From the NCBI GenBank assembly GCA_963719985.1, contig CAVRDU010000005.1:1156432-1220431 (forward strand): a DNA stretch of 64,000 nt. Direction: 5' to 3'. The stretch comes from Candidatus Aminicenantes bacterium (GTDB lineage Bacteria > Acidobacteriota > Aminicenantia > Aminicenantales > Saccharicenantaceae). Shown in pieces: positions 3,275-62,765 of the stretch. The translations under genes and the position numbers were made by a program. The notes under the pieces were generated by a model. It saw only the letters and a list, made by a program, of their open reading frames with translations. It was not told where the DNA came from and did no database searches. Every line of letters starts with the position of its first letter. Position 1 is the stretch's first letter.

Positions 3275-4476
3275 GTTTCCAGATCCCCATCGGGCCCCAG
3301 CACCCGGCCCTCAAGGAGCCGATCAGCCTGCGCATGACGGTCGAGGGCGAGGTCATCACCGACGTCGACATCCGCCTGGGCTACAACCATCGGGGCGTCG
3401 AGAAGATCGCCGAGGACAGGAACTGGACCCAGAACATCTACCTCGTCGAGCGCATCTGCGGCATCTGCTCCCACTCCCACTCCACCTGCTACGTCCAGGG
3501 CGTCGAGAAGCTCATGGAGCTCGAGCCGCCCAAGCGCGGCATGTACATCCGCTATCTCGTCTCCGAGCTCGAGCGCATCCACAGCCACCTCCTCTGGCTC
3601 GGCGTCGCCGGCCACGAGGCCGGCTTCGACTCCTTCTTCATGTACACCTGGCGGGACCGCGAGATCGTCATGGACCTCCTGGAAATGATCACCGGCAACC
3701 GCGTCCACTACGCCATCAACACGATCGGCGGCGTCCGCCGCGACCTCGACGAAGGCCAGAAGGCCAAGATCCTGGAGGGCATGGCCACGCTGAGGAAGAG
3801 GAGCGAGTACTACTTCCACATCGGCGCGAACGAGCCCAGCTTCGTCGGCCGGATCGCCGGCGTCGGCATCCTGCCCAAGGAGAGGGCCATCGCCCTTTGC
3901 GCCGTCGGCCCGACGGCCCGGGCCTCGGGCTGGCCCCGGGACGTCCGCAAGGAGGATCCCTACGCGGTCTACGACGGAGCTCGAATTCGACGTCGCCACC
4001 GCCGATTCCTGCGACGTCCTCGGCCGCGTCGTCGTCCGGGTCAAGGAGCTCCTGGAGTCCTACAAGCTCTGCGAGCAGATGGTCCGCAACCTCCCGCGCC
4101 GGGGAGATCGCCGTCAAGGCGCCGCGCAAGGCCAAGCCCGGCGAGGTCGTCAGCCGCTACGAAGCCCCCCGCGGCGAGAACATCCACTACATCAAGGCCA
4201 ACGGGACGCGACAAACCCGAGCGGCTCAAGGTCAGGGCCCCGACGCTCGGCAACTACCCGGCTACGGTGGAGATGCTCCGGAAGGGTTTCATCGCCGACA
4301 TCCCGCTCATCTTCGCCGCCATCGACCCCTGCATCTGCTGCGCCGAACGGACCGTGACGCTCGTCGGCGCGCGGACCGGCGAAGAATCCGTCGTCCGGAT
4401 GAGCGACCTGCGCCGGCAGGCGATCGCCCGGCATCAGAACGCCCCCTTGAAAAGGAATGCCGCATGGCCGCTCTGA
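3271..4476 (+). CDS. Group 4 [NiFe]-hydrogenase large subunit (NuoD-like, MbhL-like); the reading frame is interrupted by three +1 indels, likely assembly errors
   Basis: The N-terminal RICGICSHSH motif (RxCGxCxxxH) and the C-terminal DPCICCAER motif (DPCxxCxxR) are both present. The middle of the protein (DELEFDVATADSCDVLGRVVVRVKELLESYKLCEQMVRNLP, then GEIAVKAPRKAKPGEVVSRYEAPRGENIHYIKANG) is only recovered by switching frame 1 to 2 to 3 and back to 1 around 3975, 4100 and 4210. Confidence 0.85.
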   Translation: MSFQIPIGPQHPALKEPISLRMTVEGEVITDVDIRLGYNHRGVEKIAEDRNWTQNIYLVERICGICSHSHSTCYVQGVEKLMELEPPKRGMYIRYLVSELERIHSHLLWLGVAGHEAGFDSFFMYTWRDREIVMDLLEMITGNRVHYAINTIGGVRRDLDEGQKAKILEGMATLRKRSEYYFHIGANEPSFVGRIAGVGILPKERAIALCAVGPTARASGWPRDVRKEDPYAVYDGARIRRRHRRFLRRPRPRRRPGQGAPGVLQALRADGPQPPAPGRSPSRRRARPSPARSSAATKPPAARTSTTSRPTGRDKPERLKVRAPTLGNYPATVEMLRKGFIADIPLIFAAIDPCICCAERTVTLVGARTGEESVVRMSDLRRQAIARHQNAPLKRNAAWPL

Positions 4477-5435
4477 GAACGATCCTTTACCTCGTCGTCT
4501 ATCCCGGGCTGCTGTTCCTTTTCGTCTACTCGACCTTCTGCGAGTGGTTCGACCGCAAGGTCTACGCCCGCCTGCAGAACCGGATGGGGCCGACCCATAC
4601 CGGGCGGTTCGGCCTGCTCCAGCCGATCGCCGATTTCGTCAAGCTCCTGGCCAAGGAGGACGTCGTCCCCGAGGCCGCGGACAAGCGCCTTTTCTCGGTC
4701 CTGCCCGTGGTCGGGCTGGCCGTGGTCATGACGGCCGGTCTCCTCCTCCCCGTCTGGAACTTCGACCTGACCCAGCCGGGCTGGACGTCCTTCTCCGGCG
4801 ACATCATCGTCATCCTGTACCTGCTCAGCCTGCCGACGCTCGTCCTCTTCCTGGCCGCCTGGTCCTCGACCAACCTCTTTTCCACGATCGGCGGCGCCCG
4901 CGTCCTGACCATGCTCTTCGGCTACGAGGTGCCGCTCTTCCTGGCCGTGCTCACCCCGGCCATCCTGGCCGATTCCTGGCGCCTGGCCGAGATCGCGGCC
5001 TTCTATCAGGCCAGGCCGGTCCTCCTCCTGCCGAACCTGCTGGCGTTCGTCATCGCCGTCATCGCCGTCCAGGCCAAGCTCGAGCGGACCCCGTTCGACA
5101 TCCCCCACGCCGAGACGGAGATCGTCGGAGGCACGTTCACGGAATACTCGGGCAAGAAGCTGGCCCTCTTCCGGCTGACCTTCGACATCGAGATGGTCGT
5201 CGCCAGCGGCCTTCTGGCGACCGTTTTCCTCGGCGGCTTCCCCGGCGGGGCGGTCCTGGGCCTCCTCCAGTTCGTCGCCAAGACCCTCTTCATCATCTTC
5301 CTCCTGTCCCTGCTCCGGGCCCTGACGTCGCGGATCCGCGTCGACCAGGTCGTCTCTTTCGCCTGGGGGTACCTGGCCCCGCTGGCGGTCTTCCAGCTTC
5401 TGGCCATCATCCTCCTGAAGGGATTCCTGAAATGA
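4464..5435 (+). CDS. NuoH-like membrane subunit (MbhM-like)
   Basis: The 323-aa polytopic protein matches the NuoH family (GLLQPIADFVKLLAKEDVVP, ERTPFDIPHAETEIVGG). Its ATG at 4464 follows an RBS. Confidence 0.85.
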   Translation: MAALRTILYLVVYPGLLFLFVYSTFCEWFDRKVYARLQNRMGPTHTGRFGLLQPIADFVKLLAKEDVVPEAADKRLFSVLPVVGLAVVMTAGLLLPVWNFDLTQPGWTSFSGDIIVILYLLSLPTLVLFLAAWSSTNLFSTIGGARVLTMLFGYEVPLFLAVLTPAILADSWRLAEIAAFYQARPVLLLPNLLAFVIAVIAVQAKLERTPFDIPHAETEIVGGTFTEYSGKKLALFRLTFDIEMVVASGLLATVFLGGFPGGAVLGLLQFVAKTLFIIFLLSLLRALTSRIRVDQVVSFAWGYLAPLAVFQLLAIILLKGFLK

Positions 5436-25260: not shown

Positions 25261-25287
25261 GCGTTTCTGTCGGTTCGGCCGTGGAGC

Positions 25288-25555
25288 GACTCGGAGGTCA
25301 GCCTCCCCGGCCGGGAAAGTCCTTCACGCCGGTCCGTGCGCCGGACTCGGCGGCAAAACAACTCGCTCGGCTTACGCTAAGCCTCGCTCAAACACGTTTT
25401 GCCGGTTTGCAGGCAAACTCCCCTTGTCCGGCACGCGTCCCGACTAGACTTCCCCTACACCGAGTTCGGCTGACCTCCTCGCCGGTTAGGGCGGCCTCCC
25501 TTGGGAGAACGGCAGGCTGACGAGGCCCTGCCGCGGCCTGTTCGATGGAGACGGG
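25288..25555 (+). repeat. Copy A of a roughly 210-270 nt element with terminal inverted repeats. It is a candidate structured ncRNA (sense strand +) or MITE-like repeat, and is about 90% identical to an inverted copy at 46325-46600.
   Basis: It is intergenic between ispF and the carboxypeptidase gene. It has terminal inverted repeats GGAGGTCAGCC and GGCTGACCTCC and internal hairpins (GGCAAAAC/GTTTTGCC, GGCTTA-CGC-TAAGCC, GTTTGC/GCAAAC). Compensatory changes relative to copy B preserve the pairings. Confidence 0.55.
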
Positions 25556-31885: not shown

Positions 31886-32515
31886 TCAGCGGCCGCCCTT
31901 TTTCTGCGTGCCGCCCTTGGGCCCGGCGCCGTTGCCGGCCCCGGCCGCCTTTCCGGCGCCCTGGATGCCGGCGCGGAAAGAGCCCTTGCCGAAGCTGGAC
32001 TTGGTCACCTTGCCGGCCTTCTGCCCCTGGGTCATCTCGGTCTCGTCCGGCTGGCCGATCTTGTGCTGGCCTTGGTAGCCGGATCCGTCCTCGGGCTTGA
32101 CCCAGTCGGGGTCTTGGCCGTTGGGGACTCCGTCGCCGTCGTCGTCGCGCGCGAGCTGGTAGGCGTAGCCCTCAGCCGTGCCGGCCGCGGCGCCCTTCTT
32201 GTTCTGGGCCTTGTCGCCGGTCCCGTCCCCGGGCTTGGCCCAGTCGGGGTCCTGGCCGTTGGGGACGCCGTCCCCGTCGTGGTCCTTGGCGCGGTCGTTG
32301 ATCCCGTCGCCGTTCTCGTCGATGAAGGCGACGCGATTGCGATGCTGGAACTCCGGCTTCGCCTGGACCTTGTTCTGCTGGGTCTCGCCCTTGGCCTTCA
32401 GCCCGGTCTTGATCTGGGCCTTCTCCTGGGCCTTGGTCGCGGTCTGGTCCTGAGCGGCCGCGAAGAGCATGCCGACCATCAGGATCCCGACCATGATCGT
32501 GAACATCTTTTTCAT
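31886..32515 (-). CDS. Secreted protein with thrombospondin type 3-like Ca-binding repeats (DGDGVPNGQDPDW x2)
   Basis: It has a signal peptide (MKKMFTIMVGILMVGMLFAAA) and a GGAGG RBS. It is 210 aa, with Asp/Gly-rich Ca-binding repeat motifs. Confidence 0.7.
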   Translation of the reverse strand: MKKMFTIMVGILMVGMLFAAAQDQTATKAQEKAQIKTGLKAKGETQQNKVQAKPEFQHRNRVAFIDENGDGINDRAKDHDGDGVPNGQDPDWAKPGDGTGDKAQNKKGAAAGTAEGYAYQLARDDDGDGVPNGQDPDWVKPEDGSGYQGQHKIGQPDETEMTQGQKAGKVTKSSFGKGSFRAGIQGAGKAAGAGNGAGPKGGTQKKGGR

Positions 32516-46324: not shown

Positions 46325-46600
46325 TCATCCGCGGCCTCGTCGATTTGTCGTTTTTCCGAGGGAGGCCGCCCCAAGTGGCGAGGAGGTCAGTCGAATCCGG
46401 TGTAGGGAGAGTTTAGGCGGGCCGCGTGGCGGACGAGGGCAGTTTGCCTGCAAACCGCCAAAACGTGTTTGAGCGAGGCTTAGCGCAAGCCGAACGAGTT
46501 GTTTTGGCGCCGAGTCCGGCGCACGGACCGGCGTCAAGAACTCTCCCGGCCGGGGAGGCTGACCTCCGAACCGCTCAGCGGCCTCCCTCGCTACTAAAAA
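46325..46600 (-). repeat. Copy B (inverted orientation) of the structured element seen at 25288-25555; candidate ncRNA transcribed on the minus strand
   Basis: The reverse complement aligns to copy A at about 90% identity over roughly 205 nt, with further similarity in the flanks. It sits between jag and mnmE, divergent from the mnmE promoter. Confidence 0.55.
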
Positions 46601-59195: not shown

Positions 59196-61787
59196 ATGAC
59201 CGATCCCGAATATTCCGGCGGCGTCGTCCGCGAGCTGGAGCGGCGCTTCCGCGTCGCGGCGCTCTTCCGGCGCTTCCGCGTTCGGCGGCACGAGCCGATG
59301 CAGGTCCTCGAGTACGACGCCCGGGGCGTCTGGCCGCCGCGCCCGGCCCGGCTCAATCTGTCCGTCGAACGGCACGTCGGCGGAGGATTCGCGGGCCAGG
59401 TCTACAAAGTCCGGGTCCTCGATATAGACGCGCCGGAGGGGCCCCTCGTGGGCCTCGAGCGGGGAGGGACGTATGCCCTGAAGGTCCTGGTCCCCGTTTC
59501 GGGCTTCGGGCGCTTCATCCGGAACCTCCTCTACGGCCTCGGCTTCCAGGCCGCCTTCGCCCCCCAGGTCAATCCGGACGCGGCCCGGGCGGGGGCCCTG
59601 TGGCAGAAGCTCATCCGCCGCGGGGCGCGGGAGCGGCTGGGATCGGAGCGGGCCGTGGTCGACGTCCTGGCCACCCTGGTCGACCCGATACTCGGCAGCT
59701 GCGGCGAGATCAGCGAGTGGGTGGACGGCCGGCTCTGGCGCTACGAGGTCGACGACGACCTCTTCGCCCGGCTCGGCTGGAAGCCCGGCCGGCCCGCCAA
59801 GGGCCTGGGCTCGCCGGAGTACAGGGCCAAGCGGGCCTTCATGAGGGACCTCGTCGGGCTCATGCGCGACATGGGCGCCGAGGAGCTCGCCCGCCAGTAC
59901 GAATGGTGGACGATGAAGAGCCAGCCGAACGCCCTCAAGCGACTGGAACACGACGGAGATCCGGACCTCGGACTTGTTGCCGTCGACTTCCGGGCCGGGA
60001 TGGCCCTGTTGCCCTTCCTGCCCCAATGCCCCGCCGACTTCAAGCTGATCCTCCGGGGCATCGGCCGCGGCAGCCTGGTCCAGTTCGACCGGGGCGACCT
60101 ACGCAAGCTCGAGGCGTACGCCGCCGCGCGGCCGGGGCTTTTCGGCGACATGACCGCCACTATCGAGGAGCTTAAAAAAGCCGACGGAGCCTATCGGGAC
60201 TCACTGCCCGACGTCGCCCATCACCATGTGCGGCTCCTCGCGGCGCCGCGGCTCTGGACGGCCATCCACGCCGCCTGGGTCCGGGGGTGGGAGATCCGGA
60301 ACATGGCCGACGAGCGAGCGGCGGCGGCCCTCGGCCGGAGCCGCCTCGCGGCGCTCCTCTTCGTCGGCCTCGGGCTCCTGCCTCTCCTCACGCCTGTCCT
60401 GTTCCTGCTCCGCTTCCCCGGCCGGTCGGCCGGCCTCTGGCTTCTGTGGCTCGCGCCCCTCCTGGGCCCCTTCGTCCGCCGGCTCTGGGGCCGGGGGGAC
60501 GTCAGGCGGCATGTCGCCGCCATCGTTACGAAGGGCGGCTATGTCGGCCGGGCCTTCCGCGGCCACGTGGCCGAGGCCCTGGTCGGGTGGCACAGGTCGG
60601 GCCGGGTGAACGACAAGAGGACCCTGGCCATCGCCGAAAGGCCCTGGCTCTACCTGCTCAACCGGCCGTTGGCGCTCCTCCCGCCGGGCCTGCACCGATT
60701 CCTGACGGACAAGGCCTATTTCAAAGAACGGCTCCACAGCATGTTCGTCAAGCCGTTCCTGCTCTACTTCAAGCCGTCGGTCCGCGCCGAGTGGCTCCGC
60801 GACATGGTCGAAGAGGGCCGCAAGAACCGCATGCTGAGCCCGGAGGAGGCGGAGCGGATCCTGGCCCAGATCGGCGAGCCCTACATCCAGAAGTACCTGA
60901 AGAGCCTGGCCGTCCACATGGCCACGCTGTTCGTCTCGGAGACGGTCTTCCTGACGATCGCCGCGATCTATGTCCTGGGACACCCCGAGTTCGGCTGGGC
61001 CGAGGCGACGGCCCGGGCCGCGCTCATCATCGGCGCGTTCAACCTCCTCCCGGTCTCTCCGGGCTCGCTCATCCGGGGATTCTATGTGCTGGGCCTGGGC
61101 GTCAAGGAGAGGAGCTTCAAGGACTACCGGCTGGCCCTGCCGGTCAGCTTCTTCAAGATCATCGGCTACCTGGCCTTCCCGCTCCAGATGGCCTATCGCT
61201 TTCCCGAGCTGGCCCGGTTCATGGCCGCCCATTGGGCCACGGAAGCCGTCCACATCATCCCCGTCTTCGGCGAGCGGGGCGCCTGGCTCGAACATGCCGT
61301 CTTCGACGCCTTCTACAACTATCCGCTGAGCCTCGGCATAAGGATCAGGAAGCGGGACGACCTCGCGGCGGCGAACAAACCCCGGTGGTGGGCCGTCCCG
61401 GCGACCGCGATCATCGGCGCGCTCTTCGTCACGCTGGCCGACTTTCTCTTCGTCCGGTCCGCCGGGAGGGTCCCGGCCCTCAAGGACATCTGGTGGGCCG
61501 TCTTCCTGGCCCCGATCGGGGCGGGGTTCCTGGCCTCGCTCTGGTCGCGGCGGAAAAAGATGGGGAGGAGGGTCGCGGCCGGGATCCTGGCCGGCGCGCT
61601 CGTCGGCCTAGGCTACGGTCTCGTCAACGCCTTCCTGACGCCCCTCGTCCCCGGCCTGGCCGCCGCGGCCGGAGAGACCGTAGCGAACGGCTCCCCGGCC
61701 CTGGCCATCCTCTGGAAGACCTTCATCTTCGCCCTGCTGGCCATCCCCGGCGCCTTCGTCGCCGAGACCCGCCCGCCAGGTGGATAA
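59196..61787 (+). CDS. Large membrane protein with an N-terminal UbiB/ABC1-like atypical kinase domain
   Basis: It has a GGGFAGQVYKV Gly-rich loop, YALKVL (a VAVK-like motif), an EISEWVDGRLW motif resembling the ABC1 E-W-I-D-G motif, and then more than 10 predicted TM helices. It is 863 aa. Confidence 0.7.
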   Translation: MTDPEYSGGVVRELERRFRVAALFRRFRVRRHEPMQVLEYDARGVWPPRPARLNLSVERHVGGGFAGQVYKVRVLDIDAPEGPLVGLERGGTYALKVLVPVSGFGRFIRNLLYGLGFQAAFAPQVNPDAARAGALWQKLIRRGARERLGSERAVVDVLATLVDPILGSCGEISEWVDGRLWRYEVDDDLFARLGWKPGRPAKGLGSPEYRAKRAFMRDLVGLMRDMGAEELARQYEWWTMKSQPNALKRLEHDGDPDLGLVAVDFRAGMALLPFLPQCPADFKLILRGIGRGSLVQFDRGDLRKLEAYAAARPGLFGDMTATIEELKKADGAYRDSLPDVAHHHVRLLAAPRLWTAIHAAWVRGWEIRNMADERAAAALGRSRLAALLFVGLGLLPLLTPVLFLLRFPGRSAGLWLLWLAPLLGPFVRRLWGRGDVRRHVAAIVTKGGYVGRAFRGHVAEALVGWHRSGRVNDKRTLAIAERPWLYLLNRPLALLPPGLHRFLTDKAYFKERLHSMFVKPFLLYFKPSVRAEWLRDMVEEGRKNRMLSPEEAERILAQIGEPYIQKYLKSLAVHMATLFVSETVFLTIAAIYVLGHPEFGWAEATARAALIIGAFNLLPVSPGSLIRGFYVLGLGVKERSFKDYRLALPVSFFKIIGYLAFPLQMAYRFPELARFMAAHWATEAVHIIPVFGERGAWLEHAVFDAFYNYPLSLGIRIRKRDDLAAANKPRWWAVPATAIIGALFVTLADFLFVRSAGRVPALKDIWWAVFLAPIGAGFLASLWSRRKKMGRRVAAGILAGALVGLGYGLVNAFLTPLVPGLAAAAGETVANGSPALAILWKTFIFALLAIPGAFVAETRPPGG
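61667..61777 (+). repeat. Direct repeat DR1 (111 bp): the functional 3' end of the 59196-61787 gene
   Basis: It is 108/111 identical to 62655-62765. Confidence 0.8.
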
Positions 61788-61980
61788 ACGTTCGTCGCGG
61801 AGAAGCCGCCACCGGATCTCAATTTCTTGATTCTCGTCCCCGGCCGGGGCCAGCGATCTCAAGCCGAGCGCGAAAAGGAAATTCCTTTCGTGAACGCCAA
61901 AGGGCGGATGTCCCGCGAGGGGCCCCCGTCCTTTTTTATTTTCGGGGGATTTCCATTATAATCGGGGCGGACCGACCTCC

Positions 61981-62487
61981 ATGGAAAAGGCGCTTCTGAT
62001 CATCGAGGAGATGACCCGCCTGGGGGTCATCAGGGCCTATGCCATCGGAGGGGGGGTCGCCGCCACGTACTATATCGAGCCCGTCTTGACCTACGATCTC
62101 GACATCTTCTTCATTCCGGTCAAGTCGGGGTTCGACGAGCTGAGCCCGGTTTATGACTTCGCCCGCAGCCGTGGTTATGTCGAAGAGGCCGAGGCCCTGG
62201 TCATCGAAGGGTTCCCCGTCCAGTTCATCCCGGCCTACAACGATCTCGTTCGGGAGGCCGTCACGAACGCGGCGACACTGGCCTACCGCGGCGTCCTGGC
62301 CAAGGTCGTCAGAGCCGAATACCTGGCCGCCATCGCCATGCAGACGGGGCGAGCCAAGGACCGGGAACGGGTCGTACGCCTCCTGGACGGCGACGCCGTC
62401 GACAGGGGCATGCTGGCCGACCTTCTTGAGAGACATGGCCTGGCGGAAAAGCTCAAAAAGCTCGAAGGCGGGACCGATGAAAAGTGA
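61981..62487 (+). CDS. Nucleotidyltransferase-fold protein (minimal NTase motif hG[GS]-x9-13-DhDh), hypothetical
   Basis: The segment AIGGGVAATYYIEPVLTYDLDIFF matches the minimal NTase G[GS] ... D-x-D pattern. It is 168 aa, with its own TATAAT promoter and a GGACCGACCTCC RBS region. Confidence 0.5.
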   Translation: MEKALLIIEEMTRLGVIRAYAIGGGVAATYYIEPVLTYDLDIFFIPVKSGFDELSPVYDFARSRGYVEEAEALVIEGFPVQFIPAYNDLVREAVTNAATLAYRGVLAKVVRAEYLAAIAMQTGRAKDRERVVRLLDGDAVDRGMLADLLERHGLAEKLKKLEGGTDEK

Positions 62488-62638
62488 GTCGGCAGAAGCC
62501 GCATTCGAGAAGAAGCGCCGCCGCCGCCGCCAGTTGGCCCGATTGCCGTTCGAGAAAAAGATCGAGATCGTCGTCGAACTCCAAAAGGCCGCCGCTGGCA
62601 TCCGCAAGAACTCCGCGCATCGGATCTGGCCGCTCTAG
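62477..62638 (+). CDS. Small basic protein (53 aa) with an R-x4-H (HEPN-like) motif, hypothetical
   Basis: The peptide is MKSESAEAAFEKKRRRRRQLARLPFEKKIEIVVELQKAAAGIRKNSAHRIWPL. It overlaps the NTase stop by 11 nt. Confidence 0.35.
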   Translation: MKSESAEAAFEKKRRRRRQLARLPFEKKIEIVVELQKAAAGIRKNSAHRIWPL

Positions 62639-62654
62639 CGCCTATTCCGGGGAC

Positions 62655-62765
62655 GGCCGGAGAGACCGTAGCGAACGGCTCCCCGGCCCTGGCCATCCTC
62701 TGGAAGACCTTCATCTTCGCCCTGCTGGTCATCCCCGGCGCCTTCGTCGCCGAGATCCGTCCGCC
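62655..62765 (+). repeat. Direct repeat DR2 (111 bp): a displaced duplicate of the gene 3' end
   Basis: It is the partner of DR1 and encodes an alternative C-terminus (...LLVIPGAFVAEIRPPYS). Confidence 0.8.

Follow-up and report, generated by a model that had tools for sequence, protein, structure and literature searches.

What does a short, self-contained pair of overlapping genes do in the chromosome of an uncultured acidobacterium, and how did it come to lie there? The DNA analysed, referred to here as the window, is a stretch of 64,000 nt from Candidatus Aminicenantes contig CAVRDU010000005.1 (positions 1,156,432 to 1,220,431). An autonomous cassette, some 0.75 kb long, occupies about 61,885-62,640 near the right end of the window and consists of a terminator hairpin, a putative promoter, an open reading frame (ORF-A) for a 168-aa nucleotidyltransferase (NTase) and a coupled second frame (ORF-B) for a 53-aa basic protein. 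An original prediction, made from the letters of the window, had proposed that the pair was an MNT/HEPN-like toxin-antitoxin (TA) or defence module in which ORF-B carried an RNase signature, Rx4H. What emerged instead, and is new here, is an NTase module of the MenT1 type whose basic partner, encoded downstream, is a novel one; the pair travels on a cassette for which long target duplication is the mode of insertion. As to function, the reading that we favour, and whose chances we judge to be evenly balanced, is a MenAT1-like TA or defence module in which the NTase would be an effector acting on RNA 3' ends and the partner a bound inhibitor or regulator.

Two conserved and coupled genes

The two ORFs, their 11-nt overlap (62477-62487) and the sequence strings quoted in the original prediction were all found as described (Table 1). 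Across 19 cassette copies the median ratio of non-synonymous to synonymous substitution rates (dN/dS) was 0.13 for ORF-A and 0.16 for ORF-B, compared with 1.47 and 1.50 for the other two frames of the ORF-B region. ORF-A and ORF-B are therefore both genuine genes. Nearly all intact loci that were examined had a partner ORF behind the enzyme gene; it was missing only from a truncated copy (locus L035). The translational coupling of the small ORF to the NTase is thus borne out, and the two are kept together in several phyla and on one plasmid: loci with a partner span Aminicenantes, Blastocatellia, Thermoanaerobaculia, Myxococcota, Chloroflexi and one alphaproteobacterial plasmid.

The limits of the cassette were apparent from an alignment of 22 copies, in which flank conservation began at the hairpin, ran through ATTTTCGGGGGATTTCCATTATAAT with its TATAAT, and stopped at the ORF-B stop codon. 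The hairpin (61899-61934) had a folding energy of -24.8 kcal/mol with a z-score of -2.1, and its inner stem was matched by a terminator scan. Most Aminicenantes copies have it at this position although their neighbourhoods are unrelated, and it probably shields the cassette from upstream transcription. The promoter that the two genes had been proposed to share is plausible: TATAAT stands 19 nt ahead of the ORF-A ATG at a fixed spacing and is kept in about 20 of the aligned copies, and it is from this conservation that a promoter function is suggested. A simple sigma-70 scan of the cassette upstream region, however, found no full -35/-10 match and no canonical -35. The place of the hairpin is taken in one lineage by two tandem copies of a 23-nt repeat, TAGGGAGAAAAAGGGGGACGCCC (L002:4861-4906), about 95 nt ahead of the NTase start. 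An inverted repeat, GGGGACATGTAC...GTACGTGTCCCC, was seen upstream of some Aminicenantes copies, even when the wider neighbourhood differed.

ORF-A is predicted to be a MenT1-like nucleotidyltransferase

Direct searches with ORF-A and ORF-B against Pfam, NCBIfam, PADLOC, PHROGs and PDB sequences gave no match, and ORF-A found nothing in Pfam even at E<=1. Close homologues of ORF-A numbered more than 1,000, almost all exactly 168 aa long and 67-93% identical; all were called 'hypothetical protein' save one with an unrelated label, and the named sources were Candidatus Aminicenantes or Acidobacteriota. No homologue was found in phage records. A profile built from the close homologues gave noise only against the PDB, and the AlphaFold2 (AF2) model from a shallow alignment was unusable, with a predicted local distance difference test score (pLDDT) of 52. 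An exhaustive profile search then placed the family at 2,067 clusters at 50% identity, and a deep alignment of 67 diverse relatives, 31-49% identical to the window protein, was used for the comparisons that follow. The AF2 model from this alignment had a pLDDT of 95.6 and a predicted template modelling score of 0.90.

With this model the top five Foldseek matches were all MenT1 or MenAT1 (E 5.6e-9, template modelling score 0.72). MenT1 was also the sole PDB sequence match of the ORF-A family profile (E 1.5e-6), and hhalign aligned the family to MenT1 at 94.4% probability. The modelled protein has the bilobed NTase fold of the MenT type. Other structural neighbours were the antibiotic nucleotidyltransferases ANT(2'')-Ia and LnuA; a viral fold library yielded only generic poly(A)-polymerase-like matches.

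The minimal NTase motif, hG[GS]-x9-13-D-h-[DE], is present in ORF-A as G23-G24-G25 ... D39-L-D41, and its occurrence is above chance. G24, D39 and D41 were kept in 63-67 of the 67 relatives and T37, D39 and D41 in 66-67, so that conservation of the four positions ranged from 94 to 100%. The putative active-site residues are G23-G25, E33, T37, D39 and D41, and the deep family has invariants of its own at E33, Y58, Q81, E113, R124, K126, D127 and R130. In the HMMER and hhalign alignments, T37-Y-D39-L-D41 of ORF-A falls on T39-R-D41-V-D43 of MenT1. ORF-A thus retains motifs I and II of the MenT/AbiEii toxins, G-[GS] and [ST]-x-D-x-D, and with G-G, E33 and T37-x-D39-x-D41 the core for binding nucleotide and metal.

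The original prediction had allowed that profile searches might assign ORF-A to a housekeeping family and leave the small ORF unconserved; neither was the case. The Pfam family DUF2204 (PF09970, a nucleotidyl transferase family) was matched by 37 of the 67 relatives (best E 2.8e-8), though not by the window protein at E<=1; its Aminicenantes subfamily likewise reaches no Pfam threshold and appears to be sister or peripheral to DUF2204. That family and T. maritima TM1012 (PDB 2ewr) are among the closest known relatives of ORF-A. As DUF2204 has no assigned function or partner, the link names a branch of the superfamily but explains nothing. AbiEii (PF08843) was matched by two of the relatives at E about 0.01 and not by the window protein, and neither the window protein nor any relative matched NTP_transf_2 (PF01909) or Polbeta (PF18765). 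Two distant relatives matched the PADLOC candidate-defence model PDC-M21B (E 4.5e-7), for which no description or paper turned up under PDC-M21. Since the T-x-D-x-D loop is kept but K137, D152 and a strand Asp of MenT1 are replaced (see below), ORF-A is, on the model and the alignments, a Pol-beta-fold, MenT1-like, DUF2204-related nucleotidyltransferase and not a canonical MenT.

ORF-B is a novel basic partner, often fused to the enzyme

The two products are opposite in charge. ORF-A is acidic (isoelectric point (pI) 4.95, charge -6.4), and ORF-B is strongly basic (pI 11.3, charge +8.6), with a KKRRRRRQ run and an IRKNSAHRI tail. Close relatives of ORF-B formed 117 clusters, nearly all of 53 aa, with a conserved core of K13, R16-R18, L20, L23-P24-F25-E26, K28, E30, Q36 and W51; the core motif reads RRxLAxLPFxEKIxhh. 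Neither ORF-B nor its 18-member alignment matched Pfam, NCBIfam, PADLOC or the PDB even at E<=10, and a second search with the alignment listed close relatives only, with nothing on further fusion partners. The protein is probably helix-turn-helix-like, with a hydrophobic face of F25, I29, V32/33, L35, A39 and I42. In distant loci the enzyme is accompanied by an overlapping or abutting ORF of 50-75 aa that shares only [RK]RxxLAxL[PS][FWY]xEK[IVM]xhh, the tails being unrelated. In such distant pairs the small proteins were 16-35% identical and the NTases 31-49%; that is, the small protein evolves faster.

The partner ORF was present in some loci where the annotator had not called it, for example at L156:4504-4755 (Methylovirgula sp. 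HY1 plasmid pHY1, NZ_CP073765.1) and L016:3516-3701 (RefSeq/PGAP and GenBank records). The partner family is systematically under-annotated.

Enzyme and partner were also found as single proteins. Among 150 representatives of the family, at least 10 had enzyme and partner fused in frame by varied linkers, and two more had them in reverse order, with the partner N-terminal. These natural fusions are Rosetta-stone evidence that enzyme and partner act together physically.

The Rx4H signature on which the HEPN assignment had rested is literally present in ORF-B as R43...H48. When ORF-B was aligned with its 117 close relatives, the two columns read R...H in 30 of the 118 sequences and R...R in 58; position 48 was His in 31 and Arg in 72. 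The signature was absent from distant family members, so that in the window it is a chance match. The ORF-B family has no conserved Ser, Thr or Tyr.

The cassette was inserted with a long target duplication

The cassette lies between two copies of a 112-nt direct repeat, 97% identical and spaced 988 nt apart, the right copy beginning 15 nt past the ORF-B stop. The left copy forms the working end of the upstream gene for an 863-aa protein (Table 1). In 44 orthologous loci of this gene there was no NTase pair and, with the exception of locus L109, one copy each of the 3' end; the orthologous proteins end in AETRPPxx before the stop, like the left copy. The right copy differs from the left by three C>T changes (two of them non-synonymous), which lead away from the orthologue consensus. 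The cassette thus arrived at the 3' end of the 863-aa gene by insertion with a 112-bp long target duplication. The NTase gene and the small ORF were the only ORFs with coding conservation between the repeat copies, and no mobility gene was found there. A second cassette copy was not present in the window, and GC content did not mark the cassette as foreign.

The same site has received other DNA. At L109:3741-5383 a different insert, of 1.6 kb, occupies the 3' end of the orthologous gene; it carries a reverse-strand gene for a secreted-looking 283-aa protein (3777-4628) and comes with a separate duplication, of about 178 nt of that 3' end (5203-5374). The 3' end of the 863-aa gene is therefore an insertion hot spot, and because L109 has different cargo at the same site, the mode of insertion is not specific to the cassette and its mechanism is independent of cargo.

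Insertions of this kind were not confined to the window. Of 52 loci, about 14, from several phyla, had the pair between target-derived repeats of 38-164 nt, which consisted of gene 3' ends, a whole tRNA or terminators. In a matched test, flanking direct repeats were found for 6 of 28 real cassettes vs 3 of 163 shifted pseudo-cassettes (Fisher p 3.7e-4). In a Chloroflexi metagenome-assembled genome (L065:147-1095; JACPPT010000068.1) the pair sits between two 100% identical 84-nt repeats, each of which holds a complete tRNA-Gly(CCC) gene (151-225 and 1016-1090). A Phd-ParE pair and the NTase pair both lie between the copies of an 80-nt direct repeat (94% identical) at L005:4134-5750; the repeat resembles the 5' end of an ATP-binding cassette ATPase gene (MLELRAVTKKY...). 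This arrangement suggests that TA cassettes piled up serially at one site.

Two other explanations of the repeats were rejected. An assembly artefact would not account for copies that differ at three positions or for a pattern that recurs in independent assemblies. Integron attC sites, insertion sequences or transposons, and integrase attachment sites were set aside for repeats that are locus-specific, target-derived and without inverted repeats or a recombinase.

The pattern matches 'insertion with long target duplication', a term from work on restriction-modification gene complexes (Furuta, Abe & Kobayashi 2010, PMC2853133). As in that work, the insert has no mobility gene and is flanked by a direct duplication, longer than 30 bp, of a unique target that is single-copy in insert-free genomes; the repeats vary in length, from 38 to 164 nt in the present loci and from 46 to about 420 bp in theirs (PMC2853133); insertion often involves the 3' end of a gene or an entire tRNA; and the cargo is, or here would be, of the selfish, addiction type. 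The difference lies in the cargo, which there is a restriction-modification system and here a TA-like pair from uncultured Acidobacteriota and Chloroflexi.

Some genomes held two or more cassette copies, and the neighbours of the cassette were unrelated between loci. They were often TA genes, namely Phd-ParE, HepT-MntA or PIN, and CopG-RelE on the Methylovirgula plasmid. This multicopy distribution, the variable neighbourhoods beside TA pairs and the flanking target duplications agree with the earlier proposal that the cargo is TA- or defence-like. In one lineage the cassette lay directly behind RtcB and archease, which are RNA-repair genes. Upstream of the NTase gene, many Aminicenantes copies, among them L006, L018, L019, L022, L024, L036 and the one in the window (about 61788-61890), have the 3' end or a fragment of a gene for an RNA-binding protein of the RNA recognition motif (RRM) type; it looks as if this remnant were a scar of an earlier location of the cassette.

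Table 1. Position of the cassette genes, their putative signals and the flanking repeats in the window
Feature	Position	Strand	Remarks
ORF-A, 168 aa	61981..62487	+	contains AIGGGVAATYYIEPVLTYDLDIFF and GGGVAATYYIEPVLTYDLDIFF
ORF-B, 53 aa	62477..62638	+	sequence MKSESAEAAFEKKRRRRRQLARLPFEKKIEIVVELQKAAAGIRKNSAHRIWPL
Terminator-like hairpin, then T-run	61899..61939	+	GGGCGGA...TCCGCCC-type stem; RNA fold, terminator scan, alignment
TATAAT, putative -10 box	61957..61962	+	preceded by conserved ATTTTCGGGGGATTTCC spacer
Left copy of 112-nt direct repeat	61666..61777	+	working 3' end of upstream 863-aa gene
Right copy of 112-nt direct repeat	62654..62765	+	orphan relic of 863-aa gene 3' end; would read ...LLVIPGAFVAEIRPPYS and stop
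Upstream multi-pass membrane-protein gene, 863 aa	59196..61787	+	left repeat is its 3' end

The 863-aa protein itself had no match in Pfam or NCBIfam beyond a sub-threshold one to LPD23. Its C-terminal 250 residues are 70-86% identical in dozens of metagenomic contigs, and it is the product of an uncharacterised conserved Aminicenantes gene. Elsewhere in the window, two arms of 251 nt separated by 21 kb (25277-25527 and 46333-46583) make up an inverted repeat of 87% identity, and there is an 89-nt direct repeat, 86.5% identical, with a spacing of 138 nt (32059-32146 and 32197-32284).

A proposed MenAT1-like module and its alternatives

The closest characterised system is MenAT1 (Rv0078B-Rv0078A) of M. 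tuberculosis, in which the toxin MenT1 is a tRNA nucleotidyltransferase and the antitoxin MenA1 is a 68-aa helical protein (PDB 8AN4, 8AN5; PMC10435456, PMC11375011). MenA1 provides a precedent for a short helical antitoxin of a MenT fold (PMC10435456). MenT1 toxicity depends on D41, K137 and D152 (PMC10435456); the T39A protein is still toxic, and D41 and D43 have been proposed as metal ligands (PMC10435456, PMC11375011). T39 is autophosphorylated upon MenA1 binding (PMC11375011). The cassette resembles MenAT1 in being a two-gene module, in keeping the E-P..T-x-D-x-D active-site loop in ORF-A, including the equivalent of the phospho-acceptor Thr, and in having a very short, non-enzymatic, likely helical partner without a recognised DNA-binding domain.

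By analogy, ORF-A and ORF-B would form a complex. The NTase, as effector, would add nucleotides to RNA 3' ends and so block translation, tRNA acceptor ends being the precedent for its substrate. ORF-B would bind the enzyme and keep it inactive, as MenA1 does with MenT1; it might also do so by causing the conserved T37, which corresponds to T39 of MenT1, to be autophosphorylated. From complex formation and the geometry of the complex, through toxicity and the identity of the toxin, to the substrate and the mode of inhibition, these are steps that we infer.

Several observations set the pair apart from MenAT1 or weigh against such a module. The enzymes are about 20% identical, ORF-A being a 168-aa acidic protein, and at three positions the family departs from MenT1. 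In HMMER and hhalign alignments, which compare sequence alone, K137 of MenT1 appears to correspond to A119 (28 A and 26 M among the 67 relatives) and D152 to R130 (53 R and 11 K); the carboxylate of the MenT1 strand VVVDLL likewise appears as Q81. With these residues replaced, the chemistry or substrate of ORF-A may differ, or its activity may be reduced. The partner, for its part, resembles neither MenA1 nor any other PDB or Pfam entry in sequence. An acidic enzyme with a basic partner is the reverse of the usual nucleic-acid-binding toxin with its acidic antitoxin. In nearly all loci the partner lies downstream and overlaps, whereas MenA1 and AbiEi are upstream. Finally, the frequent fusions, which further set the pair apart from MenAT1, are no less compatible with an obligate subunit than with a labile antitoxin.

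Of the other systems of the lineage we compared AbiEii/DUF1814, a type IV toxin with the antitoxin AbiEi, and MenT3 and MenT4. AbiEii-type toxins are about 290 aa, have a large COG5340 or AbiEi partner upstream, and carry a C-terminal KLxA...RDxxD motif that ORF-A has not kept.

The best-surviving alternative, which we regard as a serious though rather unlikely one, is that ORF-A and ORF-B are the obligate subunits of a two-subunit or split nucleotidyltransferase that is no toxin. The Arg-rich protein would recruit nucleic acid or another substrate, for RNA tailing, repair or small-molecule modification, and the cassette would be mere mobile cargo. Such an enzyme would account for the in-frame fusions in both orders (at least 12 of the 150 representatives), for the pairing of an acidic enzyme with an Arg-rich partner of the KKRRRRRQ type and, if the alignments hold, for the missing equivalents of MenT K137 and D152; ANT(2'')-Ia and LnuA as structural neighbours and the lineage with RtcB and archease also fit. 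Fused TA systems, such as CapRel, do exist, and so fusion does not exclude a TA pair. Moreover, the RtcB linkage is confined to a single lineage, and a patchy, multicopy, strain-specific distribution without conserved neighbours, a putative insulated promoter of its own and repeated embedding among bona fide TA pairs are not what would be expected of a split enzyme.

It is also conceivable, though improbable, that the polarity is reversed, as in type VII systems, which is the original prediction stripped of its HEPN element: the small basic protein would be the toxin, and the upstream NTase the antitoxin, acting as MntA does on HepT, through binding or through nucleotidylation. The gene order is then the canonical antitoxin-first order, and the two systems share a minimal G[GS]-x(n)-D-x-D NTase, acidic, with a second, small and basic gene product. 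The small protein, however, offers no conserved Ser, Thr or Tyr as nucleotide acceptor, and specifically no acceptor Tyr. It has neither an enzymatic motif nor a conserved Rx4-6H or HEPN domain, it is hydrophilic and hence no membrane-type small toxin, and it evolves faster than the NTase, as antitoxins usually do. The NTase, in turn, is nearest to toxins and not to MntA, having no NTP_transf_2 or Polbeta match. Genuine HepT-MntA pairs adjoin some copies of the cassette. The MNT/HEPN-like pairing that had been proposed for the cassette was therefore abandoned: its small protein has no HEPN match and its NTase no MntA-type Pfam match, the nearest relatives being the MenT1/AbiEii lineage and DUF2204.

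Less probable still is a minimal self-mobilising element, in which the enzyme and a basic, DNA-binding partner would themselves promote excision or circularisation of the cassette, or its insertion with long target duplication. Such activity would account for the many copies (14 of about 52 loci, spread over several phyla) that 38-164-nt duplications bracket tightly without a recombinase. A milder version sees in the pair an NTase defence system, split or fused, with the small domain as its phage sensor.

That ORF-B is a miniature HEPN-type RNase using R43-x4-H48 is next to impossible, since its sole support is the literal RKNSAH of the window copy, neither Rx4H nor the tail is conserved, the ORF-B family has no HEPN profile, Pfam, PDB or PADLOC match, and 53 aa are insufficient for a HEPN helical bundle domain, the HepT-like neighbour seen here having 140 aa.

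Implications for the MenT lineage and for mobile cassettes

The pair defines a large, unannotated two-gene family, with more than 2,000 enzyme clusters at 50% identity and no Pfam model for the window subfamily or for the partner. It ranges over Acidobacteriota, Myxococcota, Chloroflexi and an alphaproteobacterial plasmid, and its small gene is missed by standard annotation. The many independent insertions provide a sizeable natural data set on a mode of mobility that was described for restriction-modification systems (2000-2010). In sum, a new branch is added to the lineage of MenT-type toxins, on which work has so far centred on M. tuberculosis and AbiE. The branch differs in its partner, which is of a new kind, in its gene order, which is reversed, in its recurrent fusions and, as it appears, in its catalytic constellation, and it lends itself to testing whether partners generally induce autophosphorylation of the active-site Thr.
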